In this document: in pieces, positions 8,981-40,464 of the stretch
How the letters are laid out: each line of letters begins with the position of its first letter
Position numbering within the stretch: position 1 is the stretch's first letter
IMG/VR virus record: IMGVR_UViG_2579778753_000003
DNA length: 41,460 nucleotides
Strand: one strand, 5' to 3'
Source: a virus
Lineage: Duplodnaviria; Heunggongvirae; Uroviricota; Caudoviricetes
Notes under the pieces: generated by a model
Told to the model about the DNA's origin: nothing
Seen by the model: the letters and a program-made list of their open reading frames with translations, nothing else
The model's database searches: none
Position numbers and translations under genes: made by a program

Positions 8981-9295
8981 ATGACGACACCAACCAGACG
9001 GATAAGTTTCTATCTGAAGCCCGCCGCCGTCAAGAGTGAACAGGAGGCGTGCAATTACCTCGATAGCCTGCCAGCCTCCGAACGCAGCCGCGCGCAACGC
9101 GCGGCCTTTCTGGCTGGGCTAGCGCTCATAAAGCGCAACCCAGCATTTGCCTACTGGATGGCCGAATGGCCAGAGGACAACCTCCCCTTCAATACCGTTA
9201 GCATCAAGGAAACATACCAGGATAATCAGCCTAGCGGAGTTGAATGCAATTTTTATAAAATAAAAAAGAATATTCAGACCTTATTCCCAGAATAA
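8981..9295 (+). CDS. parR: ParR/StbB-like partition adaptor
   Basis: 104-aa ORF 5 nt after parM with an AGGAG Shine-Dalgarno; RISFYLKPAAV...LDSLPASERSRAQRAAFLAGLAL resembles StbB. The track ORF from 8846 overlaps parM. Confidence 0.65.
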   Translation: MTTPTRRISFYLKPAAVKSEQEACNYLDSLPASERSRAQRAAFLAGLALIKRNPAFAYWMAEWPEDNLPFNTVSIKETYQDNQPSGVECNFYKIKKNIQTLFPE

Positions 9296-9343
9296 TCTGA
9301 TAATTGTATGTGAACTAATAAAATACAGACCAACACATCATTC

Positions 9344-9368
9344 TGGCACCCTTGCTAACAGGGTGCCA
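9344..9368. terminator. 9-bp stem hairpin between convergent genes (possible bidirectional terminator)
   Basis: tggcaccct-tgctaac-agggtgcca; lacks a clean U-tract on either strand. Confidence 0.3.
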
Positions 9369-9378
9369 ATGTTTCAAA

Positions 9379-10221
9379 TCATGATGAAATTGCCGAAGTT
9401 TTTTTATCGTGCTGAAGTACCGCAAATGCCATTAAAACCTCAAGAGAATAGCGGCGATAATACTTAACAAAACCATAATAAAATACTCGGGATGCAGCAA
9501 TACAAAACAAGAGAAGAAAACAAAAAGGTAACAGTCTGATATTTATATCTATTAAAAAGGATAGAAGGAGCAGGAACATAAGCAACCAGACTGAAGCGAG
9601 AAAAACAAATGTAATGTTTCTACAAAAACCATACAAAGCAACATAGTTTTGCATTTTCACCTGATGATTTTTAGAATGTTCATACACATAATGATAAGCA
9701 AGGCGAAAAAGATCGCCCCTCAAGCCCTTACGTCGATATAGCGTAGATACAGAAAAAACATTTATATAACCATCTCGTATTTGCGGCCAAAAGACTTTAA
9801 TAAGTATAGAATGCAGTGTGGTTTTATGATGTTCTGCTTTATCAAAAGCTGATACAGGAAATAAAAAAACTCCACGAATAAAATTAACTATACTGAACTT
9901 AGTATTATGTCGTTTTATTTTCAGGGAGCTTCTTTTAGAAAACAGATAAATTGAAGGATACCCAAGTTTACTGTTCATGTATTTTTCAATTAAACAGGAT
10001 GATAGAATAGATATGAAGTGACCTGAAATATATGATAGAACGATTAATACCACATATATAAATACACTTATTATTTCTTTATATTTCAGGATATGGTTAA
10101 GAATACCTTCTATATAAACAGGGTTAATTTCAATAGAAAACAAAAAAAGGATAAACAGGAATAACCCACCTGGAATTAGATAGCCCAAAAAGTCATAAAA
10201 TGAAAACGGATTCTGTGTCAC
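9379..10221 (-). CDS. Multi-pass membrane protein, unknown family (cargo gene 2)
   Basis: 280-aa ORF, AT-rich and codon-atypical for the prophage; hydrophobic helices at both termini (LIPGGLFLFILFLF..., FVFLASVWLLMFLLLLSFL...); no recognisable motif. Confidence 0.7.
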   Translation of the reverse strand: MTQNPFSFYDFLGYLIPGGLFLFILFLFSIEINPVYIEGILNHILKYKEIISVFIYVVLIVLSYISGHFISILSSCLIEKYMNSKLGYPSIYLFSKRSSLKIKRHNTKFSIVNFIRGVFLFPVSAFDKAEHHKTTLHSILIKVFWPQIRDGYINVFSVSTLYRRKGLRGDLFRLAYHYVYEHSKNHQVKMQNYVALYGFCRNITFVFLASVWLLMFLLLLSFLIDINIRLLPFCFLLLFCIAASRVFYYGFVKYYRRYSLEVLMAFAVLQHDKKTSAISS

Positions 10222-10260
10222 ACTTCCCCCTGTGTTACTTGTAAATTAAAGGGTAAAACA

Positions 10261-10758
10261 TTATTTGTTTTTCCGTAAAGGATTAGCTTTCCATCTTCTT
10301 ACTAACCATTCGAATTCTTGATATGTAGTATCCGAATTAATGCTTTCTCTGATTGCTTTAATTAATGGCTCGGCAATATCATATGTCTCTACAACTGTTG
10401 TGTAAGATGTTCTTTTTATCATTTTTTCATCATAAATACCTTCACGAATACTTACAGCAACTCGCTCGTAAAAATTTAAAATATATTGAAATTTTCGACG
10501 CTCGGCCATTTCTTCATCTGTTATTATGCAACCATCACAAGGAAAAACATAAGAACGAAATGATTTGCCTGAACGATGCACTTGTTTCAGGGTATGCAAT
10601 GACTCTATATATTGCATATCTTGCCGACTCTCAAAAAGAAAGTTGGCCGTTTGAGTTTTTTTTGCGGTACGCACATTGTAGATAATGGTTCCAATGGCAA
10701 CCAAAACGCCAAGCAGAACAATAGCATTGCTGATGATTTGTAGTGTTATTGGGTTCAT
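10261..10758 (-). CDS. N-terminally membrane-anchored protein, unknown family (cargo gene 1)
   Basis: 165-aa ORF; N-terminal helix LQIISNAIVLLGVLVAIGTIIY followed by a soluble domain; AT-rich; 39 bp upstream of cargo gene 2 on the same strand. Confidence 0.7.
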   Translation of the reverse strand: MNPITLQIISNAIVLLGVLVAIGTIIYNVRTAKKTQTANFLFESRQDMQYIESLHTLKQVHRSGKSFRSYVFPCDGCIITDEEMAERRKFQYILNFYERVAVSIREGIYDEKMIKRTSYTTVVETYDIAEPLIKAIRESINSDTTYQEFEWLVRRWKANPLRKNK

Positions 10759-10777
10759 CCTATTTCATCCATAAAAA

Positions 10778-11101: not shown

Positions 11102-11480
11102 TTCAGGGGGTAAATAGCATTCCCTGAACGATGTCGCAGAGACACAACAGAATGGCCATATTTCTCACGCTGAGCATGAAAAAGGCGTGAGGGCTTTTGA
11201 TTTGATGGGGTGAAAGGTAAGGCCGTCAAAATCGCACTGAGGCAGCGAGAACATACAGTCAACGCGGTGGGATTGCGTAAGAGTCTGACCGTCGATGGTG
11301 GCGATAAACTGGAAGGCGTCGTGAAATTATCTGATTGATACAGGAGCTGGAGAGCCGGGGCATAAATTTTTTATGCCCGGCGAAGCAGCAGACAAGCGAA
11401 GCGCGTCAGTGATGCGGCACCTTGCCGACCACACTTCATAAGTGCAAAATACGAGCAAAGAAATCAATGGAGGCTGTTTT

Positions 11481-12005
11481 ATGGTCATTAATTACAAGCA
11501 GTTACGAGAAAAACGAGAGCAGGTAAAGGAAAGTTTTCGCCGCAATGAAGATCTGACCCCGCTTGTACACCTTGCTCAGGGAATTGTAGATGCTTATGAA
11601 ATCTCTCTGGAGCTGCCATCACAGACATGGACTGATAGCGACGGTAATCGCCAGCATTACGTTTCATGCGGACTGGAAACAACTGAAGGGTTTCGCAGAA
11701 TGCCTTTATCTCAGATTCCTGCCGCTACCCCCAAAGCAAGGGGCGGCAATGATGAGCGAAAACTGATTTTCAGCATTGAGACAGTGGTTGACGACACACC
11801 TGGCGAAGTCGCCTTCGTGCATACTCCTCTTTCGATCGCAATGTATAACGATGAAATACAGGTTCGCGTTAATAATAATATCGTGCCACTTAAAGAAGGT
11901 AATTCACCATACACCACCGTTTGTGAAGCCATTCAATATTACGTTCTCTCTGAAATTGATAATCTCAAGCCTGACGGCACCCAGAAAATGGTTCAACTCT
12001 GGTAA
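11481..12005 (+). CDS. Hypothetical cargo protein
   Basis: ATG at 11481 with GGAGG 7 nt upstream (the track ORF starts at 11442 without a Shine-Dalgarno); 174 aa, no recognisable motif; convergent with the portal gene. Confidence 0.55.
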   Translation: MVINYKQLREKREQVKESFRRNEDLTPLVHLAQGIVDAYEISLELPSQTWTDSDGNRQHYVSCGLETTEGFRRMPLSQIPAATPKARGGNDERKLIFSIETVVDDTPGEVAFVHTPLSIAMYNDEIQVRVNNNIVPLKEGNSPYTTVCEAIQYYVLSEIDNLKPDGTQKMVQLW

Positions 12006-12010
12006 AAAGG

Positions 12011-12036
12011 ACAGCCCCATCACGGGGCTGTTTTTT
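12011..12036. terminator. Bidirectional terminator-like hairpin at convergent gene ends
   Basis: acagcccc-atca-cggggctgt followed by T6 on the plus strand; overlaps the last portal codons. Confidence 0.45.
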
Positions 12037-13066
12037 CATCAAGAAGAGCATAAGAATTAAAACGGATCACCTCTTCGCCAAGCCAGTCATTGATGTGCTT
12101 CATGGCCTCCATGACGGGCATCAGCTCGTTAATTGCGTAAACACGCGCGGCCTTCTCCACATCACCAAACGCACTTTTTTCACCCGGCATCGCCCCCATC
12201 AGTTGCGGCGGAACGCGGTGCGCAGCCAGCACATCATCACGGGATGCCGCCTTAACATTCATGAACTCATCCTTTGCTGTGATCTGCTGGAACGGCAAAA
12301 TTTGCACCCCCTCTTTGCCCCCGTTGGGCGCATGAATGAGCACATTTTTAAACGCACCACCACCACGTGCACCCTGTAGCGTTTCTTTCAGGGAGTCCAT
12401 GCTTTCGCGGTTTACCTGCGCTGCACCGATGTAGATGATGCACCCGGCGTGGGATCCGTTGTCGTAATACAGTTTTCTGAACATGTCCGCCGAATGAGAC
12501 AGGCTGGCCGAGAGTAATGCGCCGAGATATTCCGGCATGCCGTAAATTTCCTGGTTAATGTCAGGATTCATCAGGTGGCACACTTTGCCAGGGCGAAACT
12601 GAAACGCGTCCTTGCCATCCTGCACATACCACCATGATTCAAGATCGCTTCCGCGTCGCATGTATTTCGCCAGGGCGTGCCGTAATTTAAGCGGTTCGCC
12701 GAGCATATTGCTTCGAAGCTCAAGAAATGCGTTACCGAACACAAACCAGTCCAGCGCCAGCGCCGAGAAATCCTGCCGGGAAAGCAGCGGGTGCGGGATG
12801 TAGCAACCGAGTAATACATTGCGCTTAAAGTAAAGCGCAGACTGATGCCAGGACGTTTGCCGGGCAGCTCTTGCCAGACCGTACCAGTCCACCGGGGTTT
12901 CATACCACCGACCGTTATCAGCACAGTACATATTGTCCAGCAGGTCATGCCCGGTCAGGCGGTAAGGACCATCAAATGTGAATGCACTGAGCGACGATTC
13001 TTTCCTGAGCGCATCAGCGAGATCAATGCGTGAACTCATGCGCAATTTTTTATTTTTTCTGCTCAT
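12020..13066 (-). CDS. Q: Portal protein (P2 gpQ-like)
   Basis: 348 aa; ...SWHQSALYFKRN...NPDINQEIYGMPEYL...HRVPPQLMG...GDVEKAARV... resembles recalled gpQ; start overlaps the terminase stop (ATGA). Confidence 0.9.
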   Translation of the reverse strand: MSRKNKKLRMSSRIDLADALRKESSLSAFTFDGPYRLTGHDLLDNMYCADNGRWYETPVDWYGLARAARQTSWHQSALYFKRNVLLGCYIPHPLLSRQDFSALALDWFVFGNAFLELRSNMLGEPLKLRHALAKYMRRGSDLESWWYVQDGKDAFQFRPGKVCHLMNPDINQEIYGMPEYLGALLSASLSHSADMFRKLYYDNGSHAGCIIYIGAAQVNRESMDSLKETLQGARGGGAFKNVLIHAPNGGKEGVQILPFQQITAKDEFMNVKAASRDDVLAAHRVPPQLMGAMPGEKSAFGDVEKAARVYAINELMPVMEAMKHINDWLGEEVIRFNSYALLDEKTAP

Positions 13067-23228: not shown

Positions 23229-25331
23229 ATGAGTACCACAACACGAAAATTTAAAACCGTTATCACCGATACGGGTGCAAAAAAATTAGCTCAGGCAGCC
23301 GCGCCAGATGGTAAGCCTGTCCGCCTGACTCATATGGCCGTGGGCGACGGTGGCGGCACGTTGCCCACACCAGACAGTAAGCAGACCCGTCTGGTGCATG
23401 AGGTGTGGCGACACACTGTTAATCGCGTCATCCTGGACGCAACACATCAGAACCGCATTATTGCGGAGCTGGTTATTCCTCCTGAAACGGGCGGATTCTG
23501 GATCCGGGAAATTGGTGTATTTGATGAGCACGGCGATTTAATCGCGGTGGGCAATACTGCCGAAAGTTACAAACCAACCGTTGCCGAAGGGTCCGGACGT
23601 GCGCAAACATTTCGCACCATTCTGACCGTATCCAGCACTGCCACCGTGGCGCTTACCGTGGATAACACCATGGTGATGGCCACAGTGGATTACGTGGATG
23701 ACAAACTGAAAGAGCATGAACAGTCACGACGTCACCCGGATGCCTCGCTGACCGCAAAAGGCTTTGTTCAACTCAGTAGCGCCACTAACAGCGATTCTGA
23801 AACGCTGGCTGCAACGCCGAAAGCGGTTAAGGCCGCGTATGACCTGGCTAACGGAAAATATACCGCTCAGGACGCCACGACGGCACGAAAAGGGATAGTC
23901 CAGCTCAGCAGTGCAACCAACAGCACGTCTGAAACGCTGGCAGCGACACCAAAAGCGGTTAAGGCGGTAATGGATGAAACGAACAAGAAAGCCCCATTAA
24001 ACAGCCCGGCACTGACCGGAACGCCAACAACACCAACTGCACAACAGGGAACGAATAATACCCAAATCGCAAGCACGGCTTTCGTTATGGCCGCGATTGC
24101 CGCACTTGTAGACTCTTCACCTGACGCACTGAACACGCTGAACGAGCTGGCGGCGGCGCTGGGCAACGACCCGAATTTTGCGACCACCATGACTAACGCG
24201 CTTGCGGGTAAGCAACCGAAAGATGCCACCCTGACGGCGCTGGCCGGGCTTGCTACTGCAGCAGACAGGTTTCCGTATTTTACGGGGAATGATGTTGCCA
24301 GTCTGGCAACCCTGACAGAAGTCGGGCGGGATATTCTTGCGAAATCGACCGTTGCCGCTGTTATCGAATACCTCGGTTTACAGGAAACGGTAAATCAGGC
24401 TTCTGGCGCATTACAGAAAAACCAGAACGGCGCAGATATTCCGGGAAAAGATACCTTCACCAAAAATATTGGGGCCTGCCGCGCATATAGCGCATGGCTG
24501 GATATTGGTGGCGATAGTCAGGTCTGGACAACCGCGCAATTTATTTCGTGGCTGGAGAGTCAGGGAGCATTTAACCATCCTTACTGGATGTGCAAAGGCT
24601 CATGGGCTTATGCAAATAATAAGGTCATTACAGATACAGGTTGCGGAAATATTTGTCTTGCAGGTGCTGTGGTGGAAGTTATTGGCACTCGCGGCGCAAT
24701 GACCATACGCGTTACCACGCCGAGCACGTCCAGCGGTGGCGGAATTACTAACGCTCAATTCACTTATATTAATCATGGTGATGCTTACGCTCCTGGCTGG
24801 CGACGAGACTACAACACGAAAAATCAACAACCTGCATTTGCTTTAGGGCAAACAGGAAGCACTGTCGGAAATGATAAAGCTGTTGGCTGGAACTGGAATA
24901 GCGGGGTCTATAACGCAAACATTGGTGGCGCATCGACATTAATCCTCCACTTCAATATGAATACGGGGAGCTGCCCTGCTGTACAGTTCCGCGTGAATTA
25001 CAGGAACGGCGGTATTTTTTATCGTTCAGCGCGTGATGGTTATGGATTTGAGGCTGACTGGTCAGAGTTTTACACCACGACCCGCAAACCCTCTGCGGGA
25101 GATGTTGGTGCATACACGCAGGCAGAATGTAACTCAAGGTTTATTACAGGTATTCGCCTTGGCGGTCTGTCATCTGTTCAGACATGGAATGGTCCCGGCT
25201 GGTCTGACAGGTCAGGTTATGTCGTTACGGGTTCAGTTAACGGAAACCGTGATGAATTAATTGATACAACTCAGGCAAGGCCAATTCAGTATTGCATTAA
25301 TGGGACGTGGTATAACGCGGGGAGTATTTAA
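23229..25331 (+). CDS. H: Tail fibre protein (gpH-like), constant N-terminus fused to variable C-terminal cassette 1
   Basis: 700 aa with SSATNS.SETLAATPKAVKA repeats; a recombination site at 24361-24386 lies in-frame (encoding [10 protein letters not shown]). Confidence 0.85.
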   Translation: MSTTTRKFKTVITDTGAKKLAQAAAPDGKPVRLTHMAVGDGGGTLPTPDSKQTRLVHEVWRHTVNRVILDATHQNRIIAELVIPPETGGFWIREIGVFDEHGDLIAVGNTAESYKPTVAEGSGRAQTFRTILTVSSTATVALTVDNTMVMATVDYVDDKLKEHEQSRRHPDASLTAKGFVQLSSATNSDSETLAATPKAVKAAYDLANGKYTAQDATTARKGIVQLSSATNSTSETLAATPKAVKAVMDETNKKAPLNSPALTGTPTTPTAQQGTNNTQIASTAFVMAAIAALVDSSPDALNTLNELAAALGNDPNFATTMTNALAGKQPKDATLTALAGLATAADRFPYFTGNDVASLATLTEVGRDILAKSTVAAVIEYLGLQETVNQASGALQKNQNGADIPGKDTFTKNIGACRAYSAWLDIGGDSQVWTTAQFISWLESQGAFNHPYWMCKGSWAYANNKVITDTGCGNICLAGAVVEVIGTRGAMTIRVTTPSTSSGGGITNAQFTYINHGDAYAPGWRRDYNTKNQQPAFALGQTGSTVGNDKAVGWNWNSGVYNANIGGASTLILHFNMNTGSCPAVQFRVNYRNGGIFYRSARDGYGFEADWSEFYTTTRKPSAGDVGAYTQAECNSRFITGIRLGGLSSVQTWNGPGWSDRSGYVVTGSVNGNRDELIDTTQARPIQYCINGTWYNAGSI
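24361..24386. other. Invertase crossover site gixL-like
   Basis: ttatcgaatacc-tc-ggtttacaggaa, matching the recalled Gin/Cin/Pin site (ttatccaaaacc-tc-ggtttacaggaa). Confidence 0.7.
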
Positions 25332-25333
25332 CG

Positions 25334-25867
25334 ATGATGCACTTAAAAAACATTACTGCTGGCAACCCTAAAACAAAAGAGCAATACCAGCTAACGAAAC
25401 AATTTAACATCAAATGGCTTTATTCAGAGAATGGAAAAAACTGGTATGAGGAACAAAAGAATTTCCAGCCAGACACTTTGAAAATGGTCTATGACCATAA
25501 CGGCGTTATTATTTGTATTGAAAAGGATGTTTCAGCAATTAATCCGGAAGGCGCAAGCGTCGTTGAATTACCTGATATTACAGCAAATCGCCGTGCTGAC
25601 ATTTCGGGTAAATGGATGTTCAAAGATGGCGTAGTGGTAAAGCGAACTTATACCGAGGAAGAGCAGAGGCAGCAGGCGGAAAATGAAAAGCAAAGCCTGC
25701 TACAGCTCGTTAGGGATAAAACCCAGCTATGGGACTCACAGCTACGGCTGGGCATCATTTCCGACGAGAATAAACAAAAATTAACCGAGTGGATGCTCTA
25801 TGCGCAGAAAGTCGAATCTACAGACACCTCCAGCCTGCCAGTAACATTTCCCGAACAACCTGAATGA
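25334..25867 (+). CDS. G: Tail fibre assembly protein (gpG-like), partner of cassette 1
   Basis: 177 aa immediately after the tail fibre gene. Confidence 0.85.
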   Translation: MMHLKNITAGNPKTKEQYQLTKQFNIKWLYSENGKNWYEEQKNFQPDTLKMVYDHNGVIICIEKDVSAINPEGASVVELPDITANRRADISGKWMFKDGVVVKRTYTEEEQRQQAENEKQSLLQLVRDKTQLWDSQLRLGIISDENKQKLTEWMLYAQKVESTDTSSLPVTFPEQPE

Positions 25868-25895
25868 GACAAGGCCCGATAGCGGGCCTTAATTT

Positions 25896-26423
25896 TTATT
25901 CAGGCTTTTGTGGCCATTCAGGATTTGCCGTATCCACACGGCTGACCAGAACACTGTAGCGTTCCCATGCTTCCAGTCGTGTGCGTTCCTCGTCTGTTGC
26001 CATATTCAGCCTGACAGCGCGTTCCAGCGGCTGGATGACTGATTCAGCTTCGGAAAGCAATGCGGCCTTTTGTGATTCGGCTTGTTGTTGCTGTTCGTCT
26101 GCCGTATAAATCCGTTTAACTACAGCTCCATCCTTAAACATCCACTTTCCTGAATCATCAGCGCGGCGGTTGGCTGTAATATCTGGAACCTCAACGACGC
26201 TAAAACCTTCAGGGTTAAGCGTGGAGGCATCTTTAGTGATGGCGACAATAATATTATTTGCATCGTAAACAATCTTTATTGTGTCTGGCTGAAAGTTTTT
26301 CACTTCCTCATACCAGTTTTTTCCGTCCTCAGAGTAAAGCCAGATAACTCCGTGTTTCTTTGTTAACTCATACTGTTCCAGTGTTTTAGCGTTACCCGCT
26401 TTTATGTTCTTTAAGTGCATCAT
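25896..26423 (-). CDS. Alternative tail fibre assembly protein, partner of cassette 2
   Basis: 175 aa, about 50% identical to the gpG-like protein (MMHLKNI.AGN.KT.EQY.LTK...), inverted orientation. Confidence 0.8.
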
Positions 26424-26424
26424 A

Positions 26425-27449
26425 TTAAACGCTCGCTACATTATACCAGGTGCCATTTATATACTTTTGAACGGGTCTGTAATAAACGCCCGCTATATTA
26501 TCGGCAGAGTTGGACCCTGTATCCTGAACATTAATACCAGACAATACATGACCTGACGGGCACTGGAAATTCCATGTTTGCCAGTTGTTCACTCTATAAT
26601 ATTGCTGTGAACCAAGTCGAACATCTTTCACATATCTGGAATCAAAATTGCCATAGTTGCCGGGAATAACTTGCGCACCGCAAAGCCAGTTTCCGTTATT
26701 ATCCATGTACGCCTGACCATCGGTGCCATTGGCTGTCCTTGAATTATTAATCATGTAGATGCCAAATTGCTTATTTCCCAGACCGCCAATCATAAATTTG
26801 CGGTCGGCATGGTCCTGACGGAGCAAAGCCTGAGCACCATCAGTGGATACCGCATTACGTCCCATAATAACGTTCTGGTCACGCATATGAATCCACATGC
26901 CTGTACTGCTGTTAATTAAAAAACGGTTTGCAAATATATCTCCTGTAACATCCAGACCATGCCCCATAGTTATGCGACCAGTTCTGAGATTAAGCGTAAA
27001 GGGGCGTAGTGGCCCTATATCGCCATTTTCCCCCTCATTTTCTCGGGTAGGGATGATATGAAGACATTCTTCAGAACGGCGAAAAATAGCACCAAAAGAT
27101 GAATTAAATATCCTCAGTGCATTGACTGTCGATATTTTTACTTCACTGCTGAAAAGGGCTTTAACAAGAACAGACAAAGCATCCCATTTAAGATTCATCA
27201 GGTCTTTTGTTGTGGTGCTTTGTTTGCTTCTCCATTTGAAATATTCATTGCCGTTGTCGCCTGTTTCAAACCACATGTATGAATCAGTATCGCTGTCGGC
27301 ATCATTTTTAAAACCAATCTTTGCCCAGTCAGTATTCCGAATCCAGGCAAGGATTGAGTCGTTTTCAAAAGTAAGCCCACCGGACAAGATATCGCCTGTC
27401 TTTTGGACGGCGTTACCAGCCTTGTTTACCGTTTCCTGTAAACCGAGGT
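26425..27449 (-). CDS. Alternative tail fibre C-terminal cassette 2 (promoterless in this orientation)
   Basis: Frame is open from the centre through ...[30 protein letters not shown]...; no ATG start; would fuse to the constant tail-fibre N-terminus after inversion. Confidence 0.7.
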
Positions 27450-27450
27450 A

Positions 27451-38372: not shown

Positions 38373-38562
38373 CAGGCAGAATTGCCGGAGTAACAAAAAA
38401 GCGATAGATTACGCGCGGGTGCCTTTCGGCTGATGGTCGGAGGGAATACCCGATGGCCGGATGTGGAAAGGCCCCGGAAAACACTTTTGTTTAACCGAGG
38501 CCCTAACCGTCTACCCTAAGCAAGTGATAGGTTAGCGCCTCCCCGAAAAAGGAGCAAGCGCT

Positions 38563-38703
38563 ATGTCGCAAAAATCGCTTACGGCCATCACGTTCTGCGT
38601 GACGGTAATCCTCATCATCTGGATGCTGCACGGTTCGCTGTGTGAAATACGGATGAGCTTCTGGGGAGCGGAGTTTGCGGCGTTCTTACAGTGTAAGCAG
38701 TAA
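38563..38703 (+). CDS. Hok/Gef-family type I toxin (putative)
   Basis: 46 aa: MSQKSLTAITFCVTVILIIWMLHGSLCEIRMSFWGAEFAAFLQCKQ; membrane helix plus SLCEIR and E.AAF as in Hok (SLCEIR...EVAAFMAYE); AGGAG Shine-Dalgarno; GC-rich hairpin at 38712-38733 downstream. Confidence 0.65.
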   Translation: MSQKSLTAITFCVTVILIIWMLHGSLCEIRMSFWGAEFAAFLQCKQ

Positions 38704-38965
38704 GGAAACCGCGACGGGGGAGTAATCCCCCGTCAATCGGTTGCTAGGGTAAGGTCGATAAGGCACCCTATCTCACAGCTCTAAATGCAAAAATTCCATG
38801 AAACTGTGGGATTTTTGCATCACATACTGATACAGACCAGCCCTTCTATATGCCTCACTCTATACCAGCTAATCAATTGACACTTATCAATAAAAATAAA
38901 TCTGATAAAATCAAAATGTTTTGTAACAAATATCAACTCGTATTAATCCAAAGGAGGCGGATTAC

Positions 38966-39298
38966 ATGGCATTAATCAAATGTCCTGAATGCCAGAAAGA
39001 GGTGAGCGATTCAGCATTGTATTGCCCTGCTTGTGGTAAACAACTGCAAAAACTTAAGCGTTCATTTTTTGGACGGATCATTAAGTGGGTTTTTATATTA
39101 TTTAATATTTTTATGATCTATACGCTTTTAGTTGGACTAGGAGGCACTAGTGAAATAATAAATAATGCCACATCCGATGCCGAAAAAGCCGGTGCAGTTA
39201 TTGGTACAGGCTTAGGTTTAATTACCATTGGAAGCTTATGGGTTATTGGCGATATCATTATCGGAATTTTAGTATTTCTTACTAAACCAAAGGGATAA
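38966..39298 (+). CDS. Zinc-ribbon membrane protein, unknown function
   Basis: 110 aa; CPEC...CPAC zinc ribbon followed by two hydrophobic helices; AGGAGG Shine-Dalgarno; AT-rich. Confidence 0.6.
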   Translation: MALIKCPECQKEVSDSALYCPACGKQLQKLKRSFFGRIIKWVFILFNIFMIYTLLVGLGGTSEIINNATSDAEKAGAVIGTGLGLITIGSLWVIGDIIIGILVFLTKPKG

Positions 39299-39302
39299 TA
39301 AA

Positions 39303-40196
39303 ATGAAAAATATAATTTTTTCTATAGGTGCATCATTTATATCAATTAGTGTACTGCCTGTTCACGCAGCAACTGAACATAAGAACTTCAATGCAGTACT
39401 CCAGTGCCGAGCAATAGAAAATAATAAAGACAGACTTTCTTGTTACGATAAGTCAATACAACCGACTCGAACGAAAGTTGCTGAAAAATTCGAAAGCAGA
39501 GATCAATGCCCTGATGAGAAAGATGATGATAGACGTTTATCTTGTTATGATCGTTTCTTTTCTCCAACATTTACTCCATCTGTAAACTCAAAATCTAAAA
39601 CGGAAAAGCCAGTAACAACAGAGGCTCAGCAACCAAATCTTTCTGAGATATCTAAATGTCGTGCAGAAAATGATAAAGAAGCCAGACTAAACTGCTACGA
39701 TAAACTATTCCCACAGGATAAAATCGTTCAAGCTGAATCAAAATTAGAGAAAGCCACAGATGTAGGAAAATGGCACACATCCATTACTACATCGCCAATT
39801 GATGATTCGAAAAATGTAATTTTATCGTTAGAAAGTGATGATTATATCAGAACTCCATTTGGAGAAGCGGTTACTCCTACTCTTTTTATAGCTTGCCGAG
39901 AAAAGAAAACCGAAGTATTTCTTAGTTGGGATGTATATTTAGGCCTTGAACAAACCAGCATGCTTTATCGCCTTGATAAACAGAAAGCAGTTGAGCGAAA
40001 CTGGCTAGTATCTACAGATACAAAGGCTGTTTTTTATAAAGGTAATGACATTGATTTCATCCGAAAACTAGCCAACTCAAGCAAAATGTATACAAAAATA
40101 ACGCCTTATAATGAGAGCCCCGTAAGTGCAACTTTCAATTTAAACGGCCTGTCAAACGCGCTAAAACCGCTTCAAGCTGCTTGTAACTGGAAATAG
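39303..40196 (+). CDS. Secreted protein with three cysteine-pair repeats, unknown function
   Basis: 297 aa; signal peptide (cleavage after VHA), three copies of a C-x8/9-RL-x-CYD-K/R motif, then a roughly 150-aa C-terminal domain; AT-rich. Confidence 0.65.
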   Translation: MKNIIFSIGASFISISVLPVHAATEHKNFNAVLQCRAIENNKDRLSCYDKSIQPTRTKVAEKFESRDQCPDEKDDDRRLSCYDRFFSPTFTPSVNSKSKTEKPVTTEAQQPNLSEISKCRAENDKEARLNCYDKLFPQDKIVQAESKLEKATDVGKWHTSITTSPIDDSKNVILSLESDDYIRTPFGEAVTPTLFIACREKKTEVFLSWDVYLGLEQTSMLYRLDKQKAVERNWLVSTDTKAVFYKGNDIDFIRKLANSSKMYTKITPYNESPVSATFNLNGLSNALKPLQAACNWK

Positions 40197-40279
40197 TATT
40201 AAATCATGTGGCTTAGCCACAATCACAGATAACACAAAGCCCGTGAAAACGGGCTTTGTGTTATCTGTAACTCGAAAAT

Positions 40280-40298
40280 GTGGTCACTGCGTGGACAC
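40280..40298. repeat. Candidate attR core (right copy of 19-bp direct repeat)
   Basis: gtggtcactgcgtggacac versus 11-29 (18/19 identical); sits at the transition from AT-rich cargo to the host flk region. Confidence 0.4.
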
Positions 40299-40464
40299 GC
40301 GCTGACATAAATCCTTTTACATCAATAAATTAAGTCATCATTTTTTTCATCAACAAGGATTTTCACGTTTGTGTTACCTGTATGAGACGAGAGTTAACCG
40401 GACAAGTGTGCCATAATCTCGCGGCCAGGCATACTTGCGAAGATTTCAGGTATAAGGATACGTA

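Follow-up and report, generated by a model that had tools for sequence, protein, structure and literature searches.

The prophage end and its two-gene cassette

The stretch of DNA considered in this work (IMG/VR virus record IMGVR_UViG_2579778753_000003; 41,460 nt in full length, referred to below as the window) is a piece of an Escherichia coli chromosome, in which a P2-type prophage is followed by the gene flk. The prophage is of the P88/186-like kind (Peduoviridae, P2-like) with its insertion site at pdxB/flk, and the right part of the window is identical to a region of NZ_CP132979.1, where the RefSeq order is gpD, ogr, hok, 'zinc ribbon domain-containing protein', 'type VI secretion system-associated protein TagO', flk. 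The last two genes before flk, referred to here as gene 1 and gene 2 and their products as p1 and p2, are the subject of this report. A reading of the window from its letters and open reading frames (ORFs), referred to as the sequence-only reading, had described them as an AT-rich pair of accessory cargo genes at the right end of the prophage, and both ORFs and their cargo character are borne out by the analysis. The cassette and its genes are as follows.

38779..40270, + strand: AT-rich cargo cassette carrying both genes (1,492 bp, 36.1% GC), as defined by the homology breakpoints with phage Chuche
38966..39298, + strand: gene 1 (110 aa), encoding a predicted C4 zinc ribbon (aa 1-30) and a DrpB-like two-helix inner-membrane module (aa 27-110)
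39303..40196, + strand: gene 2 (297 aa), encoding a protein with a Sec signal peptide (aa 1-22) and three Cys-hairpin motifs ahead of a VasI/IalB-like beta-sandwich (aa ~150-297)

The cassette is a horizontally acquired two-gene accessory unit, which occupies the slot between hok and the right attachment site (attR). Its GC content of 36.1% compares with 51.7% for the remaining prophage and 52.3% for flk, and the only comparably AT-rich region elsewhere in the window is at about 9250-10750. The edges of the cassette are sharp swap boundaries, as homology to phage Chuche breaks off at 38778 and starts again at 40271, and between these same breakpoints Chuche carries Com and a DNA methyltransferase. 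The sibling phage P88 is without the cassette and has a small ORF alone in that position, and phage P88_4B11 carries the same gene pair with an additional 1.5-kb insert. Because Chuche, P88 and P88_4B11 differ in their content at this place, the hok-att interval is, on the basis of these genome comparisons, a variable accessory slot. The cargo found in it is of several kinds (viz. hok/sok, a RES-toxin pair, and Com with the methyltransferase). The insert in P88_4B11 (a Xuanwuvirus; L077, 4820-5646) lies between hok and the gene pair, where it encodes an 80-aa protein and then a RES-domain protein (Pfam RES, E 1e-9), and it is probably a RES toxin-antitoxin pair, whose presence beside the two genes indicates that the slot stacks several cargo units. 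The borders of the slot are as follows.

38563..38703, + strand: hok-family toxin gene, left border of the variable slot (Pfam HOK_GEF, E 3.7e-7; NCBIfam HokA, E 6e-9)
40344..40363, + strand: attR core TTTTCATCAACAAGGATTTT (20 bp), at the start of the K-12 homology to the right flank; the same 20-mer is present at attL in NZ_CP132979.1

The hok-like locus named in the sequence-only reading is accordingly real. Comparison with prophage-free K-12 identifies the 20-bp core as the true boundary of the prophage, overlapping the 5' end (first codons) of pdxB, and attL lies about 180 nt outside the window on its left side. The gene pair is located within the prophage, about 150 nt short of attR.

Gene 1: a zinc ribbon joined to a DrpB-like membrane module

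The sequence-only reading had seen in p1 a CPxC...CPxC zinc ribbon joined to two membrane helices, and all of the evidence on the protein agrees with this. Its CxxC knuckles are CPEC at residue 6 and CPAC at residue 20, and its score of 31.8 bits against Pfam Zn_Ribbon_1 (PF13240) is above the cut-off of 25. Among the ribbon cysteines C6, C20 and C23 are invariant in 20 homologues and C9 is at least 90% conserved, and based on the knuckles and the profile score the ribbon is a predicted metal site. Two hydrophobic helices are indicated by Kyte-Doolittle windows centred at about 42-53 and 84-99, and in the AlphaFold2 (AF2) model (pLDDT 78) two beta-hairpins are followed by helices at 34-66 and 71-105. 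The charges, viz. an excess of K/R over D/E (8 versus 3) ahead of helix 1, a 17-residue loop that is acidic and a C-terminal tail that is basic, predict an N-in/C-in topology with a periplasmic loop of about 17 aa, and by this prediction the zinc ribbon would be cytoplasmic. The protein belongs to phrog_6586 (E 1.7e-41), and an exhaustive profile search places 339 representative clusters in its family at E <1e-10; the weaker tail of that search (7,459 hits at E <1e-3) probably consists in part of matches to the zinc ribbon alone. Relatives of p1 were found in a species-level genome scan in gamma-, alpha- and deltaproteobacteria and in spirochaetes.

The two-helix module is homologous to DrpB (YedR), a non-essential E. 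coli divisome protein and multicopy activator of the Rcs and Psp responses, which has been reported to have homologues in E. coli and close relatives only and no conserved domain (PMC7648144). In an hhalign comparison of the p1 family with the DrpB family, residues 27-110 of p1 are aligned with residues 9-93 of DrpB, i.e. over the whole two-helix module, with 93.6% probability and an E value of 2.1e-7; significance is reached in this family-versus-family comparison only, the single-sequence alignment of p1 with E. coli DrpB giving 9.7%. The NCBIfam DrpB model (NF038392) matches p1 over its full length with 20.8 bits (E 3.6e-4), and a weak match of the same kind is seen again for two members of the p1 family that are without the ribbon. 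However, the equivalog cut-off of this model is 50, and for this reason p1 is, as judged from the profile comparisons, a distant paralogue of DrpB and not DrpB itself. The precomputed family PF28000, which is known to us by its accession and not by its name, covers 98 of the 100 DrpB homologues retrieved and also six p1 homologues, but for cluster P0093 (98% identical) there is no such entry. Both proteins have the same size and, by prediction for p1, the same two-helix N-in/C-in topology with a short periplasmic loop, and common to them are a basic RS-x-x-G-K-x-x-x-W-x-F entry, an AG-rich start of helix 2 and a C-terminal T-R/K-P-K/R motif; T106 and P108, which are invariant in the p1 family, are aligned to T89 and P91 of DrpB. 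On the other hand, the identity between them is about 18%, p1 has the extra N-terminal C4 zinc ribbon, it is prophage-borne and has a periplasmic protein as its partner, and its family is spread well past the 'few enteric bacteria' reported for DrpB.

The main rival to the interpretation given further below follows from this relationship. It holds that the cassette is a modulator of envelope signalling or of the divisome, in which p1 would act in the manner of multicopy DrpB on the divisome or on the Rcs (capsule) or Psp responses, p2 and the zinc ribbon would be input or regulatory parts, and resistance to phages or competitors would be an indirect result of colanic-acid capsule or altered septation. 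Besides the homology, this explanation draws on the localisation of DrpB to the septal ring and its suppression of an ftsEX deletion (PMC7648144), on the alignment of T106/P108 with T89/P91, as multicopy activation of the Rcs phosphorelay is lost in DrpB T89A (PMC11709261), and on the broad phage resistance that is reported to accompany colanic acid overproduction (PMC12753057, PMC7553319). However, the homology is remote and the NCBIfam score far from its cut-off, the effects of DrpB are seen in multicopy only, and nothing ties VasI-like domains, the kind found in p2, to Rcs. Further, p1 has relatives in alpha- and deltaproteobacteria and in spirochaetes, which are not known to have the enterobacterial Rcs system, and Rcs thus cannot be the general target of the family. 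Modulation of this kind is, in our view, an unlikely account of the cassette.

Gene 2: a VasI/TagO-like periplasmic protein

The description of p2 in the sequence-only reading, as a signal-peptide protein with three cysteine motifs and a C-terminal domain of roughly 150 aa, is likewise in accord with the results. The N-terminal signal peptide has a VHA|A cleavage site, and the C-x8-RL-x-CYD motif occurs in the protein exactly three times (residues 35, 69 and 119), for which the chance expectation is 1.6e-6 per protein. In the structural model the motifs are short helical hairpins on disordered linkers, and the C-terminal domain (residues ~150-297) has pLDDT >90.

39405..39449, + strand: motif copy 1, CRAIENNKDRLSCYD (aa 35-49), from the regular expression and Cys positions; a helix-turn-helix at 30-51 in the AF2 model
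39507..39551, + strand: motif copy 2, CPDEKDDDRRLSCYD (aa 69-83), missing in the two-repeat and one-repeat homologues
39657..39701, + strand: motif copy 3, CRAENDKEARLNCYD (aa 119-133), common to all family members including TagO of type VI secretion systems (T6SS)

Homologues of p2 have one, two or three copies of the motif, of which the copy adjacent to the domain is invariant. In this third copy C119, R128, L129, C131 and D133 are invariant in 32 homologues, and it is aligned with the start of both the Pfam and the TIGR03360 models. In the 32-sequence alignment C198 is also invariant and C294 nearly so, and the eight cysteines of p2 could pair as 35/47, 69/81, 119/131 and 198/294, forming four disulfides.

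Against Pfam VasI (PF11319) p2 scores 88.6 bits (cut-off 26.5), with residues 118-296 spanning positions 1-184 of the 184 in the model, and two further partial stretches of PF11319 correspond to the additional motifs; the protein is also found in phrog_1848. The C-terminal domain superposes on the invasion-associated locus B protein of Bartonella, IalB (PDB 3dtd; PF06776), and has an IalB-like fold. However, the identity to IalB, an alphaproteobacterial chromosomal protein without a defined biochemical activity, is 15-17%, and IalB is without the RLxCYD hairpins. A search of PDB sequences with p2 gave a match to Tubby (E 0.099), which is at chance level and was set aside. The opinion of the sequence-only reading that neither protein could be assigned to a family is therefore not upheld, p2 being a VasI/PF11319 protein with an IalB-like fold and the RefSeq name TagO, and p1 a zinc ribbon with a DrpB-like module in phrog_6586. 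For the identity of the parts, viz. a zinc-ribbon DrpB-like inner-membrane protein and a periplasmic protein with the VasI/IalB fold, our confidence is high.

The name TagO suggests an alternative, in which p2 is a genuine T6SS accessory protein that is supplied by the prophage and assists or tunes the T6SS of the host. In common with VasI/TagO proteins (ECs_0222; V. cholerae VCA0118), p2 has a signal peptide and a C-x8-RLxCYD motif, followed by a beta-sandwich of about 150 aa with a conserved Cys pair, and in addition to the RefSeq name and the Pfam VasI match, it is aligned with the E. coli T6SS-2 protein ECs_0222 at an E value of 7e-11 over the motif and C-terminal domain (residues 113-296). 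However, the identity in this alignment is 26%, and on TIGR03360, the TagO/VasI equivalog model with a cut-off of 124.2 bits, p2 scores 75.4 bits, whereas the genuine ECs_0222 (strain Sakai, beside clpV) scores 257.4; the scores of other relatives, prophage-borne or stand-alone, are 35-57. The gene is also not inside a T6SS cluster, its neighbours being ogr, hok, the zinc-ribbon gene, attR and flk, and no T6SS genes were seen in the flanks read of the sampled relatives, viz. P0048, P0052 and Serratia at P2-like prophage ends and the stand-alone P0090 of Photobacterium. Three motif copies are present in p2 as against one in TagO, and its constant partner, the protein with a zinc ribbon and two transmembrane (TM) helices, is DrpB-like and not a T6SS component. 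From these comparisons p2 is to be regarded as a member of the VasI/PF11319 family but not as T6SS TagO proper, and a T6SS accessory role is very improbable. Confident homology to a characterised housekeeping envelope protein family had been named in the sequence-only reading as an outcome that would speak against its proposal of an undescribed envelope-acting module; the relationships to DrpB and TagO go part of the way in this direction, but the scores of both proteins remain below the curated equivalog thresholds.

Linkage of the two genes in different genomes

The tight linkage noted by the sequence-only reading extends well past this prophage. The stop codon of gene 1 is separated by 4 nt from the start of gene 2, full-length copies of both genes are present in the same 19 records of the phage collection (19/19 P2-type phage records), and the whole block is found in 237 of 5,426 complete E. 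coli genomes. Among the lysogens with the cassette are C. rodentium DBS100 (with phiSM) and E. coli ARS-C101. The order Ogr-p1-VasI is seen at prophage ends in Salmonella, Enterobacter, Klebsiella, Brenneria, Izhakiella and Serratia, with protein identities of 55-75%. In one homologue (P0280, 310 aa) the parts are joined in one polypeptide, in which a cytoplasmic linker connects the DrpB-like module to a third TM helix, with a VasI domain (38 bits) after it. Most of the distant relatives of p1 are either encoded downstream of a gene for a zinc ribbon, one TM helix and about 230 aa, or fused to other periplasmic domains, and the periplasmic domains combined with a p1-type membrane module in homologues include VasI-like, tRNA_anti-like OB and LprI-like regions. 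As indicated by these sequence comparisons, the two genes are co-inherited and are elsewhere fused or recombined with equivalent parts. In the upstream partners of the distant relatives no Pfam domain was found besides the zinc ribbon, and in the flanks of these relatives neither a conserved operon nor phage enrichment was seen.

A related arrangement is present at the end of another P2-like E. coli prophage, next to ytfP (L060, 8001-9126), where hok, a 97-aa protein with a zinc ribbon and a TM2 domain, and a convergent VasI-like gene with two repeats are found; judged from its sequence, this pair is an analogous replacement, in which a different two-helix module is used. Some other candidates were not relied upon. 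The single gene P0052, which follows Ogr and encodes a zinc ribbon, TM helix and VasI domain, could have been taken for a Rosetta-stone fusion, but it is known from one contig and looks like the product of a deletion by which the signal peptide of VasI became joined to the zinc ribbon of p1. In Mesorhizobium (L050) an ORF resembling VasI lies upstream of a p1 relative, but this locus was discounted, its phmmer E value of 2.5e-4 coming from a small database and Pfam giving no confirmation. A lysozyme-inhibitor theme was likewise set aside, as its three weak associations are too slight a basis: an LprI gene adjoins the Photobacterium VasI, a gene with an Ivy domain lies near a p1 relative, and the fusion P0259 matches LprI with 17.7 bits, below the cut-off of 22, P0234 being LprI-like by eye only.

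The variety of periplasmic domains (VasI-like, tRNA_anti-like OB, LprI-like) joined to the membrane module in homologues may also be read in favour of an abortive-infection or toxin-like defence, in which p2 would sense a phage component and p1 would depolarise or permeabilise the inner membrane. The variable prophage slot beside hok/sok, which holds a RES-toxin pair in a sibling phage, fits with this, and small two-TM effectors are common in defence systems. However, neither protein has a PADLOC match or carries a nuclease, NTPase or other domain typical of defence, the nearest characterised relative, DrpB, is a non-toxic division helper, and the module is stably retained alone in Pantoea chromosomes. 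Such a mechanism is, on balance, distinctly improbable.

Possible role in protection of the lysogen

The AT-rich composition of the cassette, its sharp swap boundaries and its absence from P88 and Chuche point to a role on the side of the lysogen. In Brucella phage BiPBO1 and in Klebsiella phage ST11-VIM1phi8.1 a VasI-like gene directly follows that for the repressor, and a Labrenzia phage has one close to CI. So far as sequence can tell, such genes recur as cargo in temperate phages that are unrelated to each other, and the spot next to the repressor is the classic place for lysogen-expressed genes; the superinfection exclusion or receptor masking suggested by the sequence-only reading is plausible because of these neighbours. 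The only other known home of the VasI family is the T6SS cluster, which links it to contractile machines. Based on these observations we tentatively propose, as a possible interpretation that is far from certain, that the two genes form a lysogen-expressed module for envelope protection or exclusion. The prophage would express the cassette in the lysogen, the periplasmic VasI-like p2 would associate with the DrpB-like p1 in a complex anchored in the inner membrane, and this complex would guard the interface of periplasm and inner membrane against contractile injection machines, i.e. those of superinfecting phages and possibly of T6SS attack.

The logic of this scheme would be akin to that of T4 Imm and Sp (spackle), which are directed, in the envelope, against contractile-tailed phages arriving from outside, the shared element being a small inner-membrane protein and a periplasmic protein made by the resident phage. 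However, no sequence or fold similarity to Imm or Sp was detected, the two T4 genes are unlinked and T4 is virulent. The cassette may also be compared with the hotspot cargo of P2-like phages (Old, Tin, Fun/Z, PARIS and others; PMC9122126, PMC13586616), as it too consists of AT-rich, swappable genes in a P2-type prophage, and the siblings of this prophage carry different cargo between the same breakpoints. Our cassette is located in the ogr/hok-att slot.

A more far-reaching version of this proposal is that the pair represents an unrecognised class of prophage envelope modules, in which a periplasmic sensor or adaptor with the VasI/IalB fold would act through a zinc-ribbon DrpB-like inner-membrane transducer upon conserved envelope machinery, be it the divisome together with the synthesis of septal peptidoglycan or, in the case of enterobacteria, RcsC with induction of capsule, making the lysogen refractory to superinfection or T6SS attack. 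This version, taken as a whole, we consider unlikely. If it is correct, it would provide the first function for VasI/TagO, and DrpB would be the pared-down chromosomal representative of a modular family that is mobile and widespread.

Several observations weigh against protection of the lysogen. No family in PADLOC-DB 2.0.0 matches p1 or p2 at E values up to 1, neither protein is similar to known exclusion proteins, and term searches of the two P2/P4 hotspot papers (Rousset 2022, PMC9122126; NAR 2026, PMC13586616) found no mention of these genes, the terms ogr, hok, TagO, VasI and zinc being absent from both. The function of TagO/VasI was called unknown in a 2019 review (PMC6653060), and literature searches on VasI, TagO, PF11319, the PHROG ids and TagO with prophage gave no functional study, the mentions of TagO that were found referring to the E. 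coli T6SS-2 cluster or to S. aureus TagO. Promoter-like matches are no commoner in the region than in shuffled sequence, and the one at 38884-38911, listed below, is a candidate only. Outside Enterobacterales the p1 family is found mostly among housekeeping genes. Further, homologues of p1 occur alone in Haemophilus and in Pantoea, in the latter between cueR and copA, so that the membrane protein may act without VasI, and on this sequence evidence the link between p1 and VasI is not obligate.

The lone Pantoea gene (L068-L070, 6001-6333) is a 70%-identical homologue of gene 1 that is present in many genomes. The cueR/copA position is the att site of a Serratia P2-like prophage with the full pair, and in one Pantoea genome a fresh P2-like prophage lies directly beside the lone homologue, which looks like a kept remnant of an earlier prophage end.

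The position of the genes downstream of the late activator gene ogr, and on the same strand, raises the alternative that they serve the lytic cycle of the phage (in lysis timing, release or penetration) rather than the lysogen. The same fold as that of the p2 domain is predicted in uncharacterised proteins of the virulent T4-like phages RB16, KP15 and Aeromonas phage 65.2, which is in line with this. However, the cassette is dispensable, as its absence from the siblings P88 and Chuche indicates, its base composition is foreign, a hok terminator hairpin lies between ogr and the cassette, and the lysis genes are elsewhere in the prophage. A lytic-cycle role is accordingly exceedingly improbable.

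Both protein families were known and their RefSeq labels are already in place; what is new is the relationship to DrpB, the recurrent pairing of DrpB-like with VasI-like proteins and the evidence that the name 'TagO' is misleading for the prophage copies. VasI/TagO has long been a 'function unknown' accessory gene of T6SS clusters, and here a divergent form of it travels with a divergent DrpB-like part as one mobile unit, occasionally as one protein, at P2-type prophage ends in E. coli, Klebsiella, Salmonella, Citrobacter, Serratia and plant pathogens. This provides a transplantable 1.5-kb system for learning what either family does, and the RefSeq name 'T6SS-associated protein TagO' is an over-annotation of the prophage copies. 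If the pair protects lysogens, it would represent an envelope-level mechanism and the ogr/hok-att interval would be a further cargo slot in the accessory repertoire of P2 phages; if it does not, it would be another conserved pair of prophage morons without an assigned use.

Other features of the cassette and the prophage

The remaining features in and around the slot are the following.

38417-38576: sok-like RNA match, upstream of and overlapping hok (Rfam 43 bits, E 1e-7; below the gathering score of 59)
38884..38911, + strand: sigma-70-like promoter candidate (TTATCA-16-TAAAAT with TG) upstream of gene 1, from a consensus scan
40225..40268, no strand: perfect palindrome with a 19-bp stem, closing the right edge of the cassette; read from the sequence, terminator-like, without a strong T-run
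40280..40298, + strand (other copy 11-29): 19-nt direct repeat GTGGACACTGCGTGGACAC (here written GTGGTCACTGCGTGGACAC), itself a tandem of GTGGACAC; present in both phage att arms

The same hok locus, with about 83% identity, is found in many Shiga toxin (Stx)-converting lambdoid phages. The palindrome was not called by a terminator scan, and Rfam matches to hairpin families at 40216-40291 are chance matches that reflect it.

The sequence-only reading had placed the gene pair between hok and a right att repeat. The location inside the prophage stands, but the repeat at 40280-40298, which is easily confused with an att repeat, was rejected as the att core, as the K-12 comparison puts the core at 40344-40363; the two copies of the 19-nt repeat are probably arm-type binding sites of the integrase. 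In the lysogen pdxB, whose first codons are overlapped by the core (40344-40363; also L001 3580-3599), is annotated as 21 nt longer than in K-12, and the phage arm thus seems to supply a new start codon for this gene.

The second AT-rich island of the window (9250-10760, down to 32.8% GC) has replication/partition genes on one side and the portal gene on the other, a slot which we take to be the equivalent of the P2 tin/old locus. Its two ORFs on the - strand (9379-10221 and 10261-10758) encode a 280-aa multi-TM protein and a 165-aa DUF4760 protein. The island matches no PADLOC system and shows a weak match to Csx27 only (E 1.2e-5), and it may be an uncharacterised defence candidate. The nearby region 11281-12070, where a 187-aa ORF (11442-12005; no PADLOC match) adjoins the portal gene, is without a counterpart in NZ_CP132979.1.

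Between 24370 and 30530 repeat blocks of 75-80% identity are present in both orientations at a spacing of 3,081 or 3,143 nt. They span tail-fibre and tail-fibre-assembly genes beside a recombinase gene, and the region has the look of a host-range segment that is duplicated and can be inverted. The otherwise near-identical prophage in NZ_CP132979.1 lacks about 3 kb of this region (24381-27450).

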